Assembly: GCA_963728565.1 (NCBI GenBank)
Contig: CAVSLC010000023.1
Coordinates: forward strand, 32,001-96,000
Direction of reading: 5' to 3'
Source: an uncultured delta proteobacterium
GTDB taxonomy: Bacteria > Desulfobacterota > Binatia > UBA9968
DNA length: 64,000 bases
Shown: positions 51,552-64,000 of the stretch, in pieces
Position numbering within the stretch: the first letter of the stretch is position 1
Layout of the letters: each line of letters begins with the position of its first letter
The notes under the pieces: generated by a model
The model's database searches: none
What the model was told of the DNA's origin: nothing
Seen by the model: the letters and a program-made list of their open reading frames with translations, nothing else
Position numbers and translations under genes: made by a program

Positions 51552-53547
51552 ATGCTTACGTCGCTCGAAAAAATACTTTTCTTTCTGTTGTTGGCGGCAT
51601 CGTTCTACTACGGCGGGCGGAGATTTTACGACGTTTATCGAAGCATCGCTCGAGGCAAGCCGGATGGCCGCTTCGATCAGCTACCTAGGCGGGTCATCAA
51701 TGCTGTGGTGAATGTTGTTCTTCAGCGATCGGTCTTTCGGACGCGGCCGCTGGTTTCTTTCTTTCACGCTCTGGTTTTCTACGGATTCGTTTTTTATTTT
51801 TTAGTCAATTTAGTCGATGTGCTCGAGGGTTATGTAGCCTTGCACTCCCGGGGCGGTCTGTGGAACGCATTTAATCTGACCGCCGATATCCTAACCGCAG
51901 CTGTATTGATCGGCATTATTAGTTTGGTGATCCGGCGTTTCTTTGTCCGCCCTAAGGATTTCGACTTTCCCGCGAACGTGCCGGTCCGAGAGGGAGTACG
52001 CAAAGGCATTCGCCGCGATTCGGCGATTGTTTCGGCTTTTATACTTTTTCATGTGGGCAGCCGGCTGATGTACAAGGCCTCCCAGCTTGCCCTCGAAGGC
52101 GTGGACCCCTGGCAACCCGTGAGCACGGCATTTGCGGCGCTATTTTCCGGGATGACTCCAGGCGCGCTCGAGATTTTCCATCATTTCTTTTGGTGGGGCG
52201 CTTTAGGGTCGATCCTGGTTTTCATTCCGTACTTCCCGCGCACCAAACACATCCATTTATTCATGGCGCCGATCAATTTAGCGCTACAGAAAAAGAATCC
52301 GGGTGTGCTGCAGCCCATGGATTTTGAGAATGAGGAAGTGTTCGGCGCATCCAAATTGGAGGAGTTCGCGTGGCCGCGCCTGATGGATGCGTACAGCTGC
52401 ATCATGTGTAACCGCTGTCAGGATGTCTGTCCCGCGACCAACACCGGCAAGGCACTTAGCCCGGCAGCGATATTGATCAACGAACGATTCGAGCTAAACG
52501 ATCTTTTCCCGAAGTTTGCTGCGGGGGCGGAGAGCCCGCGCCCTTTACTCGATTTCGCTCTCAATGAAGAGGCTGCCTGGGCTTGCACCACCTGCAACGC
52601 TTGTATCGAGGTTTGTCCGGTGGGCAATGAGCAGATGCTGCACATTATCGATGTGAGGCGTGAACGCGTGTTGAGCGCCGCCGAATTTCCCAACGGCCTT
52701 AAAAACACATTCAATCAGATGGAAAAGGCAGGAAACCCATGGGGGATCGCCGCGGAGGAGCGGCTGGTCTGGGCGAAGGACTTGCCCTTCCCGGTGCCGA
52801 CGGTTGACCAGAATCCCGATCCTGAGGTGCTTTATTGGGTTGGCTGCGCGGTCTCGTTCGATCCTCGCGCACAGAAGATCGCGCGCAATATGGCGGAAAT
52901 TCTCCATTCGGCCGGTTTAAATTGGGCAGTACTAGGCAAGACTGAAAAGTGCACGGGCGATACCGCTCGCCGTACGGGCAACGAATATCTGTTTGCCCAG
53001 ATGGCCGACGAGAACGTCGCGGCGTTAAATGCTATCAAAGCGCAAAGTCATCGTCACGACTTGTCCACACTGCTTTCACACAATTGGCAATGAATACCCG
53101 CAGTTTGGCGGCAACTACGTAGTAAGACATCACACTGAATTCATTAGCGAGTTGATCCGTGATGGCAAGCTCAAGATTGAGCCAAATTCTGCTGCCGCGG
53201 TAACTTATCACGACCCTTGCTATCTTGGGCGTCACAATGGAATCTTCGAGCAGCCTCGTTCGCTGATCGAGATGACAGGCGCCAATCTCATTGAGCCTGA
53301 ACGGACTCGTAACAATAGTTTTTGTTGCGGCGCCGGTGGTGGACAGTTCTGGAAGGATGAGGAGAGAGGCAAAGAGCGGGTGAGTACCAATCGGTTTCGT
53401 GAGCTCAAGCAAACCGGCGCGCAAACTGTCGCGACCGGTTGTCCATTTTGTCTGCGAATGCTTACCGAGGAGACAGCTAAAGAAGACGGTAGCGGGCCGG
53501 AGGTGTTCGATATTGCAGAACTGGTCACAAAAAGAATTCGTAAATAG
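51552..53547 (+). CDS. Membrane Fe-S oxidoreductase, FadF/HdrD-like (+1 frameshift at about 53040)
   Basis: N-terminal TMs, two CxxCxxCxxxCP motifs and CCG domains (YWVGC, TTCPHC, YHDPCYLGRH, CCGAGGG, CPFC). Confidence 0.9.
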
Positions 53548-55282: not shown

Positions 55283-56734
55283 ATGGCAAATGAAATGGTT
55301 CCCGCGAAATCTTTTTTCGGCCAAAATTTTGGCATCGATTCTAAAGATCTGGACAAGGTTCTGGCGACTGCGCTGGCAAAAAAAGCCGACTATGCCGATC
55401 TTTATTTTGAATACCGCAAGAACGAAGGGATCAGCCTGGAGGAGGGATTGGTTAAAAATTGTTCTCAATCGTCTTCCAATGGGGTCGGCGTTAGGGTGCT
55501 GGCTGAGGCTAAGACAGGTTATGCCTTTACCGATGATATTACGATTGAAAAACTTGAAGTAGCGGCGCGCACGGCGCAGTACATCGCGCAAAACCCATCA
55601 TCTCAGGTTCCGGCCCCGATCAACCAGCCTCAGGTCCAGGCTCATGATCTTTACCCCATCAAGACCTCTGTGACTGCTATTCCTCTCGACACAAAAATTT
55701 CCTTGCTGTACGAGATCGACAAGTTCGCCCGTAGCTTGGATTCGCGCGTGAAGAACGTCTTTGTGTCGTTGGGAAGCGAGGACAAAGTCATGCTGGTGGC
55801 TTCATCGCAAGGAGCGGTGATAGGAGACGTTCAGCCACTCACGCGGCTAAACGTGACGGTTATTGTCGAAGAAAATGGCAATCGACAAGTGGGCAGCTTC
55901 GGTGGCGGCGGCCGTGTCGAATATGATTTCTTTGTCGGCAACCGTGAGTACGAGCGCTATGCGCGGGAAGCGGTTCGGCAAGCAGTCCTCAATCTTGGCG
56001 CGCGAAGTGCGCCGGCGGGTACGATGGACGTGGTATTGGGGCCGGGGTGGCCGGGCATCTTGTTACACGAAGCGATTGGCCACGGCTTGGAGGGAGACTT
56101 CAATCGCAAGAAGACCTCGGCCTTCAGTGATCGAATCGGTCAAAGAGTAGCCTCCGAGTTATGCACCGTGGTTGACGATGGCACGATACCGTCGCGCCGC
56201 GGATCGATCAATGTCGATGATGAGGGCACGCCCACCAGTCGAACTGTTTTGATTGAGAACGGTATTCTCAAAGGCTATCTGCAGGATAGACTCAACGCCG
56301 GACTGATGAAAATGCCTTTGACCGGCAATGGACGCCGCGAGAGCTATGCCCATATTCCCATGCCGCGCATGACCAATACCTTTATGCTGGCTGGGAAAGA
56401 TGCTCCCGAGGACATCATCCGGTCAGTGAAGAAAGGGCTGTATGCGGTTTCGTTCGGCGGCGGCCAAGTCGATATCACCAATGGCAAATTTGTTTTCTCC
56501 ACCAGCGAGGCTTATTTGATCGAAGACGGCAAAGTGACCGAGCCGGTGAAAGGCGCGACTCTGATCGGTAATGGCCCCGATGTGCTAACCCGAGTATCAA
56601 TGGTCGGGACCGACCTGAAGTTGGATGAAGGCGTCGGCACTTGCGGCAAGGACGGACAATCGGTGCCGGTGGGTGTGGGGCTGCCGACCATCAAGATCGA
56701 TGGTTTAACCGTCGGTGGTACCGCGACCCAGTGA
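55283..56734 (+). CDS. tldD: Metalloprotease TldD
   Basis: LHEAIGHGLEGD, GNGRRESYAHIPMPRMTNT, CGKDGQSVPV. Confidence 0.95.
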   Translation: MANEMVPAKSFFGQNFGIDSKDLDKVLATALAKKADYADLYFEYRKNEGISLEEGLVKNCSQSSSNGVGVRVLAEAKTGYAFTDDITIEKLEVAARTAQYIAQNPSSQVPAPINQPQVQAHDLYPIKTSVTAIPLDTKISLLYEIDKFARSLDSRVKNVFVSLGSEDKVMLVASSQGAVIGDVQPLTRLNVTVIVEENGNRQVGSFGGGGRVEYDFFVGNREYERYAREAVRQAVLNLGARSAPAGTMDVVLGPGWPGILLHEAIGHGLEGDFNRKKTSAFSDRIGQRVASELCTVVDDGTIPSRRGSINVDDEGTPTSRTVLIENGILKGYLQDRLNAGLMKMPLTGNGRRESYAHIPMPRMTNTFMLAGKDAPEDIIRSVKKGLYAVSFGGGQVDITNGKFVFSTSEAYLIEDGKVTEPVKGATLIGNGPDVLTRVSMVGTDLKLDEGVGTCGKDGQSVPVGVGLPTIKIDGLTVGGTATQ

Positions 56735-56773
56735 TCGGCCCGGAATAGTTCAGGCAGTCAGCGGGAAGGAATC

Positions 56774-58129
56774 ATGGAACGACTCGATCTCAGTCAGGAA
56801 TTGGCGCGCGCGGTTCTCGACACGGCCAAAGCTAAAGGAGCGACTCAGGGCGACATCGTCATGGTGGAGGGAGACTCTTTCTTTGTCACCGTTCGTCTTG
56901 GCGAAGTCGAGAAAATTAGCCAGGCTCAAGAAAAGCGGTTGGGTTTGCGGTTGTTTTACGGCAGTAGCTCCGCCTCCGCCTCAACTTCGGATATCTCGAG
57001 ACAAGCCATCGACAAACTTGTTGAGGATACCATCAATATGGCCCGGTTTACCGCTCAAGATCCCTTCAGCGGCTTGCCCGACGCTTCATTGTTGGCTCGA
57101 GATATTCCCGACATGGATCTCTTCGATGATGCGGCGGGTTCAGTTTCTGTCGATGACAAAATCGCCATCGCGCTGGCGGCCGAGAAGGTGGCGATGGAAT
57201 TCGATCCTCGCATTACCAACTCTGAAGGGGCGGAATTCTCCAATCAATCCGGTCGGGTTATCTACGCCAGCAGTCACGGATTCTGCGGTGAGTATCAAGG
57301 ATCGAATTTTGGTCATTCGGTCGCTCCGGTGGCATCGCAAAATGGTTCGATGCAGAGAGACTATTGGTATTCGTCCAATCGAAAATTTGCCCGATTAGAT
57401 TCGGCGGAGAGCGTCGGCAAAAAAGCCGCCCAACGGGTATTGCGCCGTCTCGGCGCTCGCAAGATTAAAACTTGCGAGGTGCCGATTGTTTTCGATCCCG
57501 ATATGGCGGCGTCGCTGTTGCGAAATCTGTCCTCGGCGTTGTCGGGATACTCTCTGTATAAAGGCGCATCCTTTCTAAACGGCCAGCTCGGGAACAAGAT
57601 CGCGTCGGATCTAACCACGGTTTGGGATGATGGAACCATTCCCGGAGCGCTCGGCTCGAAACCATTTGACTCCGAAGGCTTGCCGATTACGAGAAAGGCT
57701 GTAGTTGAGAATGGGTTCTTACGCAGCTATCTGCTCGACACTTACAGCGGCAAAAAGTTGAACATGGCTTCGACCGGAAATGCTTCCCGCTCGATAGGTG
57801 AACCGCCGGGTGTAGCACCCACCAACTTTTATCTTGCTTCCGGCAAGCACGCGCCTGACGAGATTATCGGCTCTGTCAAACAGGGCCTCTATTTGACCGA
57901 AACCATCGGCTTCGGTGTTAATCTCGTAACCGGCGATTACTCGCGCGGCGCTGCCGGCATCTGGATCGAAAACGGCGAGCTGGCGTATCCCGTCGAAGAG
58001 GTGACCATCGCGGGGAATCTCAAAGAGATGTTTCAAAATATCGAGATGATCGGCAACGATCTCGAGATGAGAGGCCGCATCGCCGCGCCTACGATTAAAA
58101 TTTCTAAGATGACTGTGGCCGGAGAGTAA
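56774..58129 (+). CDS. pmbA: TldE/PmbA protein
   Basis: MQRDYW, PFDSEG, STGNA, NLVTGDYSRGAAG; no HExxxH motif; follows tldD. Confidence 0.93.
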   Translation: MERLDLSQELARAVLDTAKAKGATQGDIVMVEGDSFFVTVRLGEVEKISQAQEKRLGLRLFYGSSSASASTSDISRQAIDKLVEDTINMARFTAQDPFSGLPDASLLARDIPDMDLFDDAAGSVSVDDKIAIALAAEKVAMEFDPRITNSEGAEFSNQSGRVIYASSHGFCGEYQGSNFGHSVAPVASQNGSMQRDYWYSSNRKFARLDSAESVGKKAAQRVLRRLGARKIKTCEVPIVFDPDMAASLLRNLSSALSGYSLYKGASFLNGQLGNKIASDLTTVWDDGTIPGALGSKPFDSEGLPITRKAVVENGFLRSYLLDTYSGKKLNMASTGNASRSIGEPPGVAPTNFYLASGKHAPDEIIGSVKQGLYLTETIGFGVNLVTGDYSRGAAGIWIENGELAYPVEEVTIAGNLKEMFQNIEMIGNDLEMRGRIAAPTIKISKMTVAGE

Positions 58130-58271: not shown

Positions 58272-58481
58272 TTAGCTTACTTTAAATCCCGCCTTCAAGA
58301 CTGCGCGCAGAAAATCGTCAAGGTGAGACTGTTTGGGATCGAAGTCAATCACCGCGACCTTGCGCTCCAGGCTGAAATCTAAACTCTGAACTCCAGGCAA
58401 TGTGCCGAGTGCTTGGCGCAGCGCCGGCAAATTATCCGAATTTAAATCGTCGATAGAGATGATCGCTGTCTTTGTTTCCAT
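58272..58481 (-). CDS. HMA/CopZ-fold protein lacking CxxC
   Basis: 69 aa with an HMA pattern (ALGTLPGV...AVIDFDP...AVLKAGFKV); the metal loop reads LNSDNL. Confidence 0.7.
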   Translation of the reverse strand: METKTAIISIDDLNSDNLPALRQALGTLPGVQSLDFSLERKVAVIDFDPKQSHLDDFLRAVLKAGFKVS

Positions 58482-58698: not shown

Positions 58699-59136
58699 AT
58701 GGCTTACGATGTCGAGAAGCTTTTGAGCATGTCGCAAGCGGACCTCGACGACCTTTTCGGCAAATGCGCCGTGGGCGAGATTCCAAACGGCGAAGCGGAT
58801 GGAACCGCGATCGTTGCGCCCGGCACAAAGTTCAGTTCGAACATTGCCAAGTTCATCAGTAACTTTGCCTGGCAAGGTAAAGTTTTCGATGCCGGCAAGG
58901 GAGTTCTGAAAAACCGAATTCTTCCTTTTGGTCTCAATGCCATTATCGCCAAAGTTTACAAAGGACCTAGTTGGCTCGACGGCAAAGACTGTATTGTTTT
59001 GGATTACTCCGAAACCTCCATTATCGCTCAGTGGATACGTGATGAGATCCGCCAAATTGAACCCGGCCTCTACTTGGGGAAGGTCTATTGGGAGAAAAAG
59101 CGATTGATTGATTTTGCCCTGAAGTTTAACTCCTAG
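58699..59136 (+). CDS. Conserved hypothetical protein (WQGKVF / SWLDG / LDYS / IRDEIR motifs), probably beta-barrel
   Basis: GGAGGAGG RBS; no signal peptide; aromatic beta-strand pattern. Confidence 0.85.
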   Translation: MAYDVEKLLSMSQADLDDLFGKCAVGEIPNGEADGTAIVAPGTKFSSNIAKFISNFAWQGKVFDAGKGVLKNRILPFGLNAIIAKVYKGPSWLDGKDCIVLDYSETSIIAQWIRDEIRQIEPGLYLGKVYWEKKRLIDFALKFNS

Positions 59137-59349
59137 TCAGATAAAGCGATGCTGTGAACCTGACACCGCGGTTTGGGGCGATCCTGCCGCGGGGGCCACC
59201 ACGATCGAAGCCATAATCTCCACGAACAACTCCAGCTATTTCGATCTCGAGCCAATCTTCAATCGATTCACGTCAAACGACGGCAATAACTTTTTGATGA
59301 TCGTGACAACGCCAGTGCAGCGAGTAACCATTGCGGGGGGAGAACGTCT

Positions 59350-60870
59350 ATGGCGCAGCCTGAACTAGCGTCGCCGGGCGAACGTATTCTGAAGCGCATC
59401 GGTTGGATCACTGTTGTGGTGCTGCTGCTGGGTATGGTGGGGGGGGCGTTGTTGCTGGGACGTTTCGGCGCCGACACTCCGGTGGTTTACAAAGACGATC
59501 TCGAGCATTTCAAGTATGGCTCCCTCGGCAGCGAGCACGAGTTTGGCGTGCCGTATTGGATTTGGCGCGCGTTACCTGAGCTGTTCGAAGACAAGTTGCC
59601 GCAGCCCGGCCGTGGCTGGCAGTCGGTCGGCTTTGTTTTCGAGAAGGGGAAAAGTCTTCCGGTCGGCATGTCCCAGCGCCGCTATCTCGGCTTTGACGTA
59701 GTGTGGCTCAACTGTGCCTTTTGCCATGCCGGAACCGTGCGCGAAAGCGCCGAAAGCGAGCCCAAGGTTTATTCGGCAATGCCGGCCAATACTTTTGATT
59801 TTCGCGCCTTCATGAGATTTCTGTTTGCGACCGGAGAGGACAGGAGATTTACGCCAAGGGACATCCTGCGGCAGATTAAGGTCATCCGAGAACGCGAAGG
59901 TCTGAACGATTTACCCTTGATCGATCGACTGGCACTGCGTTTCTACGGCATTTATTTCATGCGCGAACGGATCCTGACCTTGCGCGATCGGCTGGATTTC
60001 ATCAAAGAGCAACCCGAGTGGGGTCCGGGGCGAGTCGACACCTTCAACCCGTTGAAGGCTTATTTTAATTTTCCGCCCGATCGACTGTCGCAGGAGGAAC
60101 GAATTGGCACGACGGATTTTCCGTCCATCTGGAATCAGGGCCAACGCGAAAGTCTCAAAATGAACTTGCATTGGGACGGTAACAACGTGTCGCTGGAGGA
60201 GCGTAACCGCAGCGCCGCGATGGGCACCGGCATCACGCCGCCCACCGGCGACCGGGCCAGCTTGAAACGGGTCGCCGACTGGGTCCGCGATCTCGCCGCG
60301 CCAGCCTATCCGTTCGCGATCAACAATAATCTCGCCGCCCAAGGCGCGCCGATCTACAAAGAGTACTGTGCGAAGTGCCATGGCGCCGATGGCAAGGATT
60401 TCCGCGGCGAAGATGTCGGCAAGGTGGTGCCGATCAAGGATATCGGCACCGACCGCGCACGTCTCGACTCCTACACCTATGAGGTTGCCGTCAATCAAAA
60501 TCTGATTTTCGCCGGATACGCCGAAGAACGCTTCAGGCACTTCCGCAAGACTTTCGGTTACGCCAATAGCCCGCTCGACGGGCTCTGGCTGCGGGCGCCG
60601 TATTTGCACAACGGCTCGGTGCCGACATTGCGCGACTTGCTTGAGCCCAGTGACAAGCGACCAAAAACTTTTTACCGCGGCTACGATGTCTACGACCAGA
60701 AGAAGGTTGGCTTTGTTGGCGATGTCAGCGAAGAGAGAGGCCGGAAATATTTTCTTTACGATACGGCTGAGCCCGGCAATTCCAATCAAGGTCACGAAGG
60801 AAAGCGCTACGGCACCGAGCTGCCGGCCGCAGACAAAGACGCTTTGATCGAGTACCTCAAGACTTTTTAA
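59350..60870 (+). CDS. RoxA-like di-haem cytochrome c (bCcP/MauG superfamily), membrane-anchored
   Basis: N-terminal TM, CAFCH, PSIWN, CAKCH, LWLRAPYLHNGSVPTL, GNSNQGHE. Confidence 0.88.
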   Translation: MAQPELASPGERILKRIGWITVVVLLLGMVGGALLLGRFGADTPVVYKDDLEHFKYGSLGSEHEFGVPYWIWRALPELFEDKLPQPGRGWQSVGFVFEKGKSLPVGMSQRRYLGFDVVWLNCAFCHAGTVRESAESEPKVYSAMPANTFDFRAFMRFLFATGEDRRFTPRDILRQIKVIREREGLNDLPLIDRLALRFYGIYFMRERILTLRDRLDFIKEQPEWGPGRVDTFNPLKAYFNFPPDRLSQEERIGTTDFPSIWNQGQRESLKMNLHWDGNNVSLEERNRSAAMGTGITPPTGDRASLKRVADWVRDLAAPAYPFAINNNLAAQGAPIYKEYCAKCHGADGKDFRGEDVGKVVPIKDIGTDRARLDSYTYEVAVNQNLIFAGYAEERFRHFRKTFGYANSPLDGLWLRAPYLHNGSVPTLRDLLEPSDKRPKTFYRGYDVYDQKKVGFVGDVSEERGRKYFLYDTAEPGNSNQGHEGKRYGTELPAADKDALIEYLKTF

Positions 60871-60906
60871 ATCGCGGGTGCGCTCCTTTACAGCCCTGGA
60901 GGTGCG

Positions 60907-62367
60907 ATGGTTGCAGGACAAAAAAAATCCTGGTGGAAAACTTGTTTGGTGCTTGTGCTCGTGTTCGTTGCTGTCGGAGGCACGATCGGCTGGTATAAAT
61001 TCCTCCGTGAGGAGCCGCAACCTAGCTGGGTGACCGCGACACCCGACATGCGCTTTAAATACGGCTCCATCGGCGCGGAGCACGACGCCGGCATACCGTA
61101 CTGGATCTTCTTCGTACTCCCGCGCATGTTTCCGGAAAAGCTGCCGGGGCCTGGCGGTTACGCTTCCTTGGGAGTCGCGTGGGAGCAGGGTCAGGAGCTG
61201 CCGATCGGTTTCACTAAAAAAGTGATCGGCTTTCCACGCGTGGCTAATAACTGCGCCTCATGCCACACCGCCAGCTATCGTAAGAGCGCCGATGAAAATC
61301 CCGTGTTTGTGCCGGCGGGGCCCAATCACACGCTCAATCTGCAGGCTTTTTTCCGCTTCGTCGTGGACTGCGCCAGGGATCCGCGCTTCAACGCCGATGA
61401 GATCATGAGCGAAATCGCGCTGGTTTATGAGTTGCCGCTGTTGGATCGGCTGATTTATCGCTACGTGCTGATTCCGATCACCAAAAAGCGTTTGCTCGAA
61501 CGCGAAGCGCAATTCAAGTGGGTGTATCACGAGGAGTTCCCGTTGTGGGGCCGGGGGCGCGATGATGCCATGAATCTCACCAAATATTTCCTACTCAACT
61601 GGCCGATGGACGATACGATTGGTCCTACCGACATGCCGTCGGTCTGGAACTTAAAAAAGTACCAGCCGGAGAAAGGCATGCTAATGAACCTTGCCGGTGA
61701 CAGCCATGATGCGCGTTCGGTGATCATCGATTCGGCCTTGGGGCTGCTCAATGCCGAGCCGCACGATCGCGACGATTTCATGGAGCAGATTGACTGGCTG
61801 GTGAAATACTTGAGCGAACTGCAGGCGCCAAAGTATCCATTCCCGATCAAGGCGGAACAGGTCAAAGTGGGCAAGACTATTTTTGATGCTAATTGCGCCA
61901 GTTGTCACGCGAGCGAGCGCACCGGCACCCGCGTGCCGGTTGAAGAGGTCGGCACGGATCGCGAGCGGCTAAAAACCTGGAGTAAGCAGGCAGCCATTGA
62001 GTCCAACAAAGTCGTGCGCAATTTCGGCATCGAGCGGCGCGGTCTGGTCGAAAATGAACCAAGTGGATACATCGCGCAATTCTTGGACGGCATCTGGCTG
62101 CGCGCGCCTTATCTGCACAACGGTTCGGTGCCGACTCTGCGCGATTTGCTCAAAGCGGTCGCCGAGCGGCCAAAGGTATTCTATCGCGGTTATGACGTTT
62201 ACGATCCGGAGAATGTCGGGTTCGTTAGTCAAGGTCCGGAGGCTCAACGAATCGGCACCAAATATGATGTCAGTGAACGCGCCAGCGGCAACCAGGGTCA
62301 CGAATTCGGCGTCAACTTGTCGGCCCCGGAAAAAGACGCGTTGATCGAATATCTGAAGAGCCTTTGA
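60907..62367 (+). CDS. RoxA-like di-haem cytochrome c, membrane-anchored paralogue
   Basis: N-terminal TM, CASCH twice, PSVWN, IWLRAPYLHNGSVPTL, GNQGHEFG. Confidence 0.88.
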   Translation: MVAGQKKSWWKTCLVLVLVFVAVGGTIGWYKFLREEPQPSWVTATPDMRFKYGSIGAEHDAGIPYWIFFVLPRMFPEKLPGPGGYASLGVAWEQGQELPIGFTKKVIGFPRVANNCASCHTASYRKSADENPVFVPAGPNHTLNLQAFFRFVVDCARDPRFNADEIMSEIALVYELPLLDRLIYRYVLIPITKKRLLEREAQFKWVYHEEFPLWGRGRDDAMNLTKYFLLNWPMDDTIGPTDMPSVWNLKKYQPEKGMLMNLAGDSHDARSVIIDSALGLLNAEPHDRDDFMEQIDWLVKYLSELQAPKYPFPIKAEQVKVGKTIFDANCASCHASERTGTRVPVEEVGTDRERLKTWSKQAAIESNKVVRNFGIERRGLVENEPSGYIAQFLDGIWLRAPYLHNGSVPTLRDLLKAVAERPKVFYRGYDVYDPENVGFVSQGPEAQRIGTKYDVSERASGNQGHEFGVNLSAPEKDALIEYLKSL

Positions 62368-62452
62368 GATTCGGTAAATCAAAACAGATCTATTGCCGAA
62401 AAGCTGGCCGATTCTTTGGAAGGGCAGCGTTGTGGTTGAGGAGAAACAAACA

Positions 62453-64000
62453 ATGGAAATCCGTCGTCTGAACCTTTCTGCGCTAGCAATACTCATCATC
62501 CTCGGCGCTGCCGGATGCGGAAAAGGATCGTCCGAACCCGGCTCGGTTAAGGACGAGGCGTTAACGGTTGGGCGCACTGCGGAAAGCTTGCCGGCTGCCG
62601 ATGAGGATTATTTCAAAGAAATGGATGGCGCGGTGGAACTCACGGCCAATGAGGTGAAGGGACGCAACAATTGGATTGTCTGGAGCGGTGGCAACGACCG
62701 CTTCTGGGATCACCTTGTTAGCGAGAGCTTTGGCGCGGTAGATCTACTAAAGATTCTTTCATCTCATCCCAACATCAAGCACCTGAGCCGGGACACCCGT
62801 TGGCGACAACTTGGCCTGGTTAACGAGCCCTGCTTTGATAAGCCACAGACCGCGAACAAAGATCGGTTCGGCCTGTGGCTGGATACGCGCCGCAAAGAGT
62901 GCCCGCCGGACCCGTTCGAAAACGAACAGAAGTACCCCGGCGTACAAATTGGCGCGCGCGGTAAGAACATTCCCGTGGGATCGTTGTACGGCTATGCGTC
63001 GGGAATCGTCGGCCTGCGCCTGTTTCCGAATCCGGACTTCGACGAAGCGGCGCAAAAGAAATGGGATGCGGAAAAATTTTATACCGACCCCGACTACTAT
63101 AACGATAAGAAGCTGATTCGTCCGTACCGGGTCGGCATGTCTTGCGGTTTTTGCCATGTCGGACCGAGTCCGGTTAAACCGCCGGCGGATCCGGAAAATC
63201 CCAAATGGGAAAACCTCAACTCGAATCCCGGCACCCAATATTTCTGGGTGGACCGGATTCTTTTCTGGGAAAAGGACGACGCGAATTTCATCCAGCAACT
63301 GCTCCATACGTCGTTGCCGGGTACTTTGGACACATCGTTTATTTCCACCGACTACATCAATAACCCGCGCACGATGAACGCCGTCTACAGCGTGGCGGCG
63401 CGTTTGAAGGCCGCCGAACGCTGGGGCGAGGAAAAACTCGCCGGAGGAGGAGTCAAGAACAAGCAGTTCCAGGACTTCAAGCAAACCGCGCCTTTGGCGC
63501 AGTACCATACACCGCCCGACACCGTCCGGACCCCGCGTATTTTGAAAGACGGCGCCGATTCCGTCGGCGTGCTCGGTGCGCTGAATCGTGTGTTCATCAA
63601 CATTGGGCTGTTCAGCGAGGAGTGGCTGCTGCACTTCAATGCTCTAGTAGGCGGCAAAAAAATCACGCCCATCAGGATTGAGGATGCCGAAAAAAATTCG
63701 AGCTACTGGAACGCGACCGTGGCCCAGACTCCGGATGTTGCGTTATTTTTCCTCAAGACGGCGCAGCCGGATCTGCTCAAGAATGCTCCGGGCGGCGAGC
63801 AATATCTGACCAAGGATCAAGCTCAGCTGGCCCGCGGCAAGACGGTGTTCGCGGAGACTTGCGCGCGCTGTCATTCGAGCAAGATTCCCGCAGCGCCGAG
63901 CGATATCGAGGAACGGGACTGGGAGCAATACTGGAAATGGACCAAGACCGACGACTTCAAGAAAAAAATGACCGAGATCGTGATGGCGGATGATTTTCTC
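62453..64000 (+). CDS. Large di-haem c lipoprotein (divergent RoxA-like), 3' end runs off the window
   Basis: Absent from the ORF track. Manual translation from ATG 62453 (GAGGAG RBS) stays open to the window end: lipobox AAGC, GMSCGFCH, PGTLDTS, RGKTVFAETCARCH. Confidence 0.85.
   Translation, partial: MEIRRLNLSALAILIILGAAGCGKGSSEPGSVKDEALTVGRTAESLPAADEDYFKEMDGAVELTANEVKGRNNWIVWSGGNDRFWDHLVSESFGAVDLLKILSSHPNIKHLSRDTRWRQLGLVNEPCFDKPQTANKDRFGLWLDTRRKECPPDPFENEQKYPGVQIGARGKNIPVGSLYGYASGIVGLRLFPNPDFDEAAQKKWDAEKFYTDPDYYNDKKLIRPYRVGMSCGFCHVGPSPVKPPADPENPKWENLNSNPGTQYFWVDRILFWEKDDANFIQQLLHTSLPGTLDTSFISTDYINNPRTMNAVYSVAARLKAAERWGEEKLAGGGVKNKQFQDFKQTAPLAQYHTPPDTVRTPRILKDGADSVGVLGALNRVFINIGLFSEEWLLHFNALVGGKKITPIRIEDAEKNSSYWNATVAQTPDVALFFLKTAQPDLLKNAPGGEQYLTKDQAQLARGKTVFAETCARCHSSKIPAAPSDIEERDWEQYWKWTKTDDFKKKMTEIVMADDFL

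Follow-up and report, generated by a model that had tools for sequence, protein, structure and literature searches.

What could three tandem di-haem c-type proteins do in a single operon with a small protein and a flavoprotein? This question is raised by the end of a 64,000-nucleotide stretch of DNA from an uncultured delta proteobacterium of the Binatia, which we call the window (positions 32001-96000 of contig CAVSLC010000023.1, or C23; everything beyond the window is given in C23 positions). A preliminary description of the window had noted four co-oriented genes, a small protein (S) followed by three RoxA-like haem proteins (D1, D2 and D3), in an operon expected to continue. Four plus-strand open reading frames (ORFs) are indeed present, and the downstream sequence, once retrieved, completes D3 and adds a flavoprotein of the GMC family (GMC). 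We find S-D1-D2-D3-GMC to be one form of a modular cluster of genes recurring in soil bacteria of several phyla. From its comparative analysis we propose, with moderate confidence, that the proteins of the operon probably introduce oxygen into fatty acids at the cell envelope and convert the hydroperoxides so formed, the role of each single protein being less certain. If so, the cluster would encode an oxylipin route of bacteria, one that the open-access literature searched does not describe.

A recurrent gene cluster with exchangeable modules

Searching species genomes with D3 yielded 164 confirmed stretches, from which 78 loci were kept, many cut by contig ends, and searching metagenomes with S yielded 476, from which 80 were kept. 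The 158 fetched loci include kin, which are not independent; single loci are given below by labels from L0xx to L2xx. The order S-D1-D2-D3-GMC recurs in 20 of the 158, all close relatives, and for this reason the five-gene cluster is not a product of chance; the neighbourhood that had been seen in the window alone is thus conserved elsewhere. Around D3 (78 loci) the neighbours are GMC (67), S (34), D1 or D2 (20), a pair formed by a protein termed c4 and a DyP-type peroxidase (18), a catalase-like gene (17), the alpha-dioxygenase-like gene POX (15) and a patatin-like gene (7). D3 stands without D1/D2 in 58 of these loci, some of them cut by contig ends. Around the metagenome S genes, D1/D2 are found in 47 of the 80 loci and c4/DyP in 16.

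The D1/D2 module and the c4/DyP pair were found together in none of the 158 loci, and because they never co-occur the two look interchangeable. Both versions exist in Binatia-like loci (D1/D2 in L012, c4/DyP in L019) and in acidobacterial loci (L041 and L035, respectively). Among five c4/DyP genomes none gave a full-length D1-type match, two giving partial matches to other superfamily members, and among five D1/D2 genomes none matched c4 in a search run without a positive control; the assemblies of both sets are incomplete.

The record titles of the D3 loci name Binatia, Acidobacteriota, Sorangium, Rokubacteria, Methylomirabilota and Geobacter, many locus titles belong to soil-type lineages, and the closest relatives are mostly recorded as Candidatus Binatia or uncultured deltaproteobacteria. 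Prevalence is patchy, with the D1 profile in 9 of 60 relatives of genome G304, the D3 profile in 9 of 251 genomes from the phylum of G302, and S in 5 of 301 of the own-phylum sample, where the only strong match is its own copy. On plasmid pRL11 of Rhizobium johnstonii 3841 the run consists of a flavin oxidoreductase (NADH:flavin), D1 (49% identity), a four-helix membrane protein, a second D-type gene (40%), D3 (45%), GMC (50%) and a patatin; S was not found in this cluster. The modules are also joined physically. Of 54 longer S homologs, GMC-S fusions make up 12 (near-full), S-D1 fusions 10 (full) and a patatin-S fusion one (P0142), several others looking like assembly frameshifts, and in L041 and L063 D1 is fused behind a domain that is catalase-like by motif.

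Other arrangements were observed. A second D3 paralog in tandem (42-45% identity, about 715 aa), with the His of the MauG-like motif kept, is present in L026, L035, L043, L047, L059, L060, L071, L072 and L143. A variant (L220:494-9512 and L221:1015-11666) carries a divergent D3 (27%), a longer S-like protein, D1 and D2, with GMC in L221; the S-like protein of L220 has an N-terminal hydrophobic stretch. In Ralstonia (L086:3810-9353, matched by 127 plasmid records) a D1/D2-clade gene adjoins a GMC gene with an alpha/beta-hydrolase-like part, and tandem pairs of the same clade stand beside such a gene in two genomes of the Sorangium genome's phylum (L214 and L215), the hydrolase-like part being assigned by eye in each case. 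Other di-haem genes of the RoxA branch adjoin a patatin (Sinorhizobium fredii) or a catalase-like gene (Sorangium and an acidobacterium; L087:6918-10868, L216 and L218). The c4 protein (for example L059:4509-5807; 433 aa) has a central hydrophobic segment and two HFxR motifs and occurs in the same 18 loci as the DyP gene; it gave no convincing family match and no PDB match, and the c4 and DyP profiles did not align to each other.

Family placement of the haem proteins

D1 and D2 had been described as N-anchored paralogs of about 500 aa with two CxxCH motifs and PYLHNGSVP, and D3 as a more divergent lipoprotein with two CxxCH motifs; both descriptions hold. D1 and D2 are 40% identical, both contain PYLHNGSVP and each has one N-terminal hydrophobic segment, with CxxCH at positions 122 and 340 (D1) and 116 and 330 (D2). 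The hydrophobic segment of D3 ends in AAGC with a lipobox-like Cys22, kept in 71 of 83 homologs; its CxxCH motifs are at 231 and 470, and its equivalent of PYLHNGSVP, outside the window, is PFLLNNSVG. The spacing from CxxCH to CxxCH is 218, 214 and 239 in D1, D2 and D3, and both motifs are invariant in the respective alignments of 54, 31 and 83 rows, which are shallow and dominated by close kin. GMC has no hydrophobic segment and neither has S, for which the absence of a signal peptide had been noted before. All these export and anchor assignments were made from hydropathy alone, not with a signal-peptide predictor.

D1 and D2 match PF21419 and lie narrowly above the cut-off of NF040606 (150 bits; see Table 1), D3 falling below it with 43 bits. 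On the RoxA, RoxB and RoxC models (NF050033, NF050034 and NF051462) D1 and D2 reach 55-90 bits against cut-offs of 900-1000, and are not members; full-length D3 gave no match to these three models, and none of 251 genomes of the Sorangium genome's phylum reached the RoxA cut-off. By sequence, D1 matches RoxA (PDB 4B2N) better than any other PDB entry (E 1.3e-10). These comparisons support the earlier placement of D1 and D2 in a RoxA-related branch of the bacterial cytochrome c peroxidase (bCcP)/MauG superfamily, outside RoxA/RoxB.

Profile searches with D3 and with S turned up no significant relative among solved structures, the D3 comparison aligning the haem-2 region alone, and Foldseek returned nothing significant for the AlphaFold model of D3 (predicted local distance difference test, pLDDT, 87). 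A fold search was made with the D3 model, D1 being placed by sequence to 4B2N. Its top seven matches out of 48161 chains all belong to the bCcP/MauG superfamily, with Z 8.9-6.6, root mean square deviation (rmsd) 4.0-4.9 and 232-365 aligned residues, the next match having Z 3.9. They are hydrazine synthase chain C, MauG, YhjA, BccP, RoxA, a MauG-like protein and BthA, RoxA giving the longest structural alignment (365 residues, Z 7.8, rmsd 4.8). D3 is predicted to be a divergent member of this fold.

The closest characterised relatives, which the preliminary description did not name, are PA2077 and PA2078 (OdsA/OdsB) of Pseudomonas aeruginosa, the oleate 10S-dioxygenase and 7,10-diol synthase, a tandem di-haem pair oxygenating oleate (PMC4496055; papers are cited here for the portions of their text that were available). 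NF040606 is probably the family of this pair, since its name matches the term fatty-acid di-haem cytochrome c peroxidases (FadCcp) of PMC4496055 and its high scorers (L087, L169 and L170) have Gln followed by Trp or Tyr at the positions of RoxA F301/W302, nearly the pattern given in that paper. A quick-mode tree of 58 rows (three near-duplicates dropped from 61), with no characterised anchors such as PA2077/PA2078 or full RoxA, separates D1/D2, the NF040606-core proxies and D3 (Shimodaira-Hasegawa-like approximate likelihood ratio test 99, 99 and 100, respectively). On this analysis the operon proteins would be filed neither as RoxA, RoxB or RoxC nor as FadCcp proper, an action like that of OdsA/OdsB being hypothetical; D1/D2 and D3 add two uncharacterised subfamilies to the RoxA branch.

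Active-site residues

Residues were mapped with an alignment that reproduces the published RoxA numbering (F301, W302, F317, H517 and H641), those of D3 by motif. The bridging Trp between the haems, W302 in RoxA, corresponds to W275 in D1 (54 of 54 rows), L262 in D2 (31 of 31) and K365 in D3 (83 of 83). The preliminary description had taken the Trp of PSxWN for this residue, which proved to be a misassignment: that Trp is present (W261 in D1, W247 in D2) and aligns to RoxA W291/W292, an equivalent of W302 being found in D1 only, where an invariant His stands next to it. F301 and F317, needed for RoxA activity (PMC6797691), are replaced by H274 and M291 in D1, N261 and L278 in D2, and L364 and I384 in D3, none of the three having the Phe residues of the RoxA pocket. 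The pocket of D1 and D2 would be more polar than that of RoxA, and the pocket of D3 non-polar. RoxA H517 aligns to H420 in D1, H404 in D2 and L606 in D3, and at the MauG-motif His position the 83 D3 rows have Leu (63), Gln (10), His (9) or Val (1). RoxA H641 aligns to H482, H465 and H770 in D1, D2 and D3, with His in every row of the three alignments; a Tyr ligand on haem 2, as reported for MauG (PMC6797691) and sought as the mark of MauG and BthA, is found in no row.

A predicted D1-D2 heterodimer

The preliminary description had suggested a heteromeric complex of three enzymes. A heteromer is supported, as a prediction, for D1-D2; inclusion of D3 stays hypothetical, D3 standing without D1/D2 in 58 of the 78 D3 loci. 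Complex prediction with D1(40-506) and D2(28-486) gave values of the interface score ipSAE (interaction prediction score from aligned errors) of 0.92, 0.91 and 0.92, the best of three controls giving 0.00; the mark used for this score is reached by 116 of 157 solved pairs and by 2 of 215 mismatched pairs. At least 98% of contacts are common to the runs, with a partner pLDDT of at least 90. The interface is built from different regions of the two paralogs, residues 236-247, 296-298 and 377-402 of D1 and residues 69-99, 129-132 and 171-175 of D2, whose conservation exceeds the average only slightly (0.86 vs 0.83 and 0.94 vs 0.91). D1 and D2 are thus predicted to form a heterodimer, from shallow alignments in which paralogs can pass as cousins and with controls that held neither homodimers nor D3.

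S and the accessory proteins

S is modelled (pLDDT 83) as a beta-barrel with helices. It has no Pfam match at E 0.1, PF14231 and PF14232 included, and no NCBIfam family. Its best fold match is 4MVE (Z 12.5, rmsd 3.1, 133 residues aligned, template modelling score 0.68), followed by generic barrels including lipocalins, and allene oxide cyclase is not among the best 50 fold matches listed. The nearest named Atlas cluster, GXWXG/DUF4334 (0.87, 165 shared features), is a lead only. The invariant residues of S include Trp, Tyr and Cys. A lipid-binding role or, alternatively, that of a cyclase had been suggested for this protein, and the predicted barrel is consistent with the first: in the simplest reading S is likely a lipid carrier, a shared fold showing no function.

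POX resembles the rice and Arabidopsis alpha-dioxygenases (E 1e-50 and 2e-48) and has the corresponding motifs at H287, Y607, H610 and R826/R827, which we take to be the distal His, catalytic Tyr, proximal His and substrate Arg, so that it is a putative alpha-dioxygenase. The catalase-like family has no Pfam or NCBIfam match, and its PDB matches consist only of coral allene oxide synthase, at a weak E of 0.011. The DyP and catalase-like proteins have no hydrophobic export segment.

Proposed mechanism and alternatives

We propose that D3 would add O2 to a fatty acid or envelope lipid, and that the resulting hydroperoxide would be reduced or rearranged by D1-D2 or, in other versions, by c4/DyP. 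The hydroxy or aldehyde product would then be oxidised by GMC, unless the part of GMC is to provide the H2O2 that primes the haems; S would carry the lipid between the enzymes, and in versions with patatins these would release the fatty acid. A fatty acid or envelope lipid is suggested as substrate because the nearest characterised relatives oxygenate oleate, PA2077/PA2078 being the only characterised non-rubber RoxA relatives found in the literature searched, and because the neighbours include patatins and alpha-dioxygenase-like and catalase-like proteins; the hydrophobic substrate imagined in the preliminary description is plausible. The host genome, for its part, has four desaturase genes, one patatin and three cytochrome c assembly genes. 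The addition of O2 is given to D3 because it travels with GMC and has non-polar residues at two oxygen-pocket positions of RoxA. Hydroperoxide conversion is given to D1-D2 because of the polar residues at one of these positions and the exchange with a DyP-type peroxidase pair.

Several points weigh against lipid oxygenation. The link to lipids is guilt by association. The D1/D2 clade is separate from the NF040606 core, whose members score 450-530 bits against 187 and 156 for D1 and D2, and D1 and D2 do not have the Gln reported for PA2077/PA2078 at the F301 position. The residues of D3 were mapped by motif alignment only, and RoxB is active with V294 in place of W302 (PMC10837239, Table 1), therefore the Trp pattern cannot assign dioxygenase as opposed to isomerase. 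The patatin and catalase-like genes are missing from this version of the cluster, and a tblastn search of the host genome (80.6% complete) turned up none of the patatin, catalase-like and DyP genes in the forms seen in the cluster. POX lies on the opposite strand here, and 14 of its 15 loci come from close Binatia-like kin. The catalase-like family (for example L060:8518-9729) has an invariant RxGNTKT, with Asn where the distal His of catalase-fold enzymes is expected. GMC and S look cytoplasmic and export is obligatory for the haem c domains, which means that the lipid would need to pass through the inner membrane. Pairs of DyP and GMC also fit the oxidation of aromatic compounds.

An alternative that we regard as unlikely is an oxidase-peroxidase relay acting on a non-lipid substrate: H2O2 from GMC would be used by the haem proteins, or by the DyP pair, to oxidise aromatic compounds or others present in soil. 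GMC keeps H113 (70 of 70), the counterpart in alignment of the choline oxidase His motif that is linked covalently to flavin adenine dinucleotide (FAD), and the exchange of D1/D2 with a DyP-family protein, the invariant His adjoining the bridging Trp of D1 and the many records from soil-type lineages would all suit such a relay. However, a hydrophobic segment for export is missing from GMC, from DyP and from the catalase-like protein, and the patatin, alpha-dioxygenase-like and allene-oxide-synthase-like neighbours would be left unexplained together with the S fusions. Oxidative modification of a partner protein such as S, after the manner of MauG or MbnH, had been considered beforehand. It is disfavoured by the haem-2 residue that aligns to RoxA H641, which in all three proteins and in all rows is His and not the Tyr of MauG; in addition, S precedes the membrane anchor in the S-D1 fusions, which would place it on the other side of the membrane. 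We judge it very improbable, in spite of the inter-haem Trp kept in D1, the invariant Trp, Tyr and Cys of S, the 10 proteins in which S is fused to D1, and the presence of MauG among the top fold matches of D3.

Cleavage of isoprenoids or polyprenyl chains by membrane-tethered enzymes, as in RoxA/RoxB, would agree with RoxA being the best PDB sequence match of D1 and the longest structural alignment to D3, and with a His/His haem 2 as in RoxA. It seems improbable given the low scores on the RoxA, RoxB and RoxC models and the absence of F301/F317 (His/Met in D1, Asn/Leu in D2, Leu/Ile in D3), and the lipoprotein RoxC showed no rubber cleavage (PMC10837239). Quite improbable, too, is an electron-transfer dehydrogenase, in which GMC, a small subunit and membrane c-type cytochromes feed the respiratory chain and Met291 closes D1 haem 1. 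Membrane-bound sugar dehydrogenases do combine a flavoprotein, a small protein and anchored cytochromes c, resembling the set found together in this operon, and the F317 position is Met in 42 of 54 D1 rows; yet it is Phe (8) or Tyr (4) in the other 12, S and GMC have no export signal, the fold of D3 is CcP/MauG-like and not that of a tri-haem dehydrogenase subunit, and the exchange with DyP would be hard to understand if the module served as an electron wire.

Lipid oxygenation could be extended to a widespread oxylipin pathway, a tentative and rather doubtful proposal. D3, as a new family of di-haem lipoproteins, would oxygenate the envelope lipids of its own cell without the canonical inter-haem Trp, an obligate D1-D2 heterodimer with one Trp-bearing and one Trp-less half would do the job of the unrelated DyP pair, a new lipid-binding barrel would link the steps across the membrane, and the product would be a signal or a remodelled lipid in Binatia, Acidobacteriota, myxobacteria and rhizobia.

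Genes of the operon and their surroundings

Table 1. Genes of the cluster in the window and downstream of it.
Gene	Position	Strand	Description
S	58699-59136	+	145 aa; predicted beta-barrel with N-terminal helices; no hydrophobic segment
D1	59350-60870	+	506 aa; N-anchored di-haem c protein; NF040606 186.9 bits
D2	60907-62367	+	486 aa; N-anchored di-haem c paralog of D1; NF040606 156.1 bits
D3	62453-64849 (window numbering; C23 end 96849)	+	798 aa, first 516 inside the window; di-haem lipoprotein
GMC flavoprotein	C23:96878-98737	+	619 aa; beyond the window; invariant H113 and WGHHA motif
POX	C23:98810-101596	-	928 aa; alpha-dioxygenase-like haem protein, convergent, accessory; PF03098

D1 and D2 share a reading frame, with one stop codon and 36 bases between them (60868-60907), and 28 bases separate the D3 stop from the GMC start. 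Scans for promoters and terminators gave about what chance would give (6 vs 5.8 and 18 vs 15.4). Contigs from RNA runs of relatives (4 of 22 listed runs) cover pieces of all the genes and of the flanks, which shows neither transcription nor co-transcription. Upstream lie a tldD/pmbA pair (55283-58129, plus strand), which only close Binatia-like kin share and which does not seem connected with the cluster, and a small gene with a heavy-metal-associated domain (58272-58481, minus strand). At 51552-53547 an Fe-S oxidoreductase-like gene appears to be split into two overlapping ORFs near 53040; its homolog in L003 reads through, and the split would be either a frameshift or an assembly error.

Significance and comparison with known systems

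No description of this cluster was found in the open-access literature, subscription papers and supplements lying outside the search. The papers found give the RoxA branch two chemistries, rubber cleavage and the oxygenation of oleate in P. aeruginosa. Its characterised enzymes are reported to be monomers, to which the cluster adds a predicted heterodimer, and the natural swap of di-haem c enzymes with DyP-type peroxidases hints at the function of both. The contribution of this window is the D1/D2 version with its residue mapping and predicted heterodimer, and its exclusion with the DyP module. The version on pRL11 of R. johnstonii 3841, a genetically tractable symbiont, makes the function directly testable.

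S shares its predicted fold with Tcur_1030 of Thermomonospora curvata (4MVE) and has GXWXG/DUF4334 proteins as a lead; the identity is 14-16% and S has no Pfam match. No function for either was found in the literature searched. The pair of Nostoc punctiforme, a 10S-dioxygenase (DOX) and a catalase-related hydroperoxide lyase (PMC13049297), also combines a dioxygenase with a haem enzyme that converts the hydroperoxide, and related clusters carry catalase-like and DOX-like genes. Its core proteins belong to other families, however, and the catalase-like protein of our cluster, absent from the version in this window, has Asn for the distal His.

RoxA, RoxB and RoxC (PDB 4B2N; PMC10837239, PMC6311187 and PMC6797691) have in common with the cluster the fold branch, the C-terminal His ligand and the MauG motif of D1/D2, and RoxC is, like D3, a lipoprotein. 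In contrast, D1/D2 score far below their hidden Markov model cut-offs, do not have the F301/F317 pocket and are clustered with GMC and S. The nearest system is PA2077/PA2078, whose operon, as described in the available text of PMC4496055, has no counterpart of D3, GMC or S. These proteins are longer than D1/D2 (624-634 aa vs 486-506 aa), with a wider haem spacing (235-245 vs 214-218), and have Gln at the F301 position, where D1, D2 and D3 have His, Asn and Leu; they are reported as monomers, whereas D1/D2 seem membrane-anchored and are a predicted heterodimer. What the two systems have in common is a tandem of di-haem c paralogs that belong to the RoxA branch and are about 40% identical to each other, with the MauG motif, a His/His haem 2 and the bridging Trp in one partner only, PA2077 having W251 and PA2078 S243 at the W302 position (PMC4496055, Table 1).

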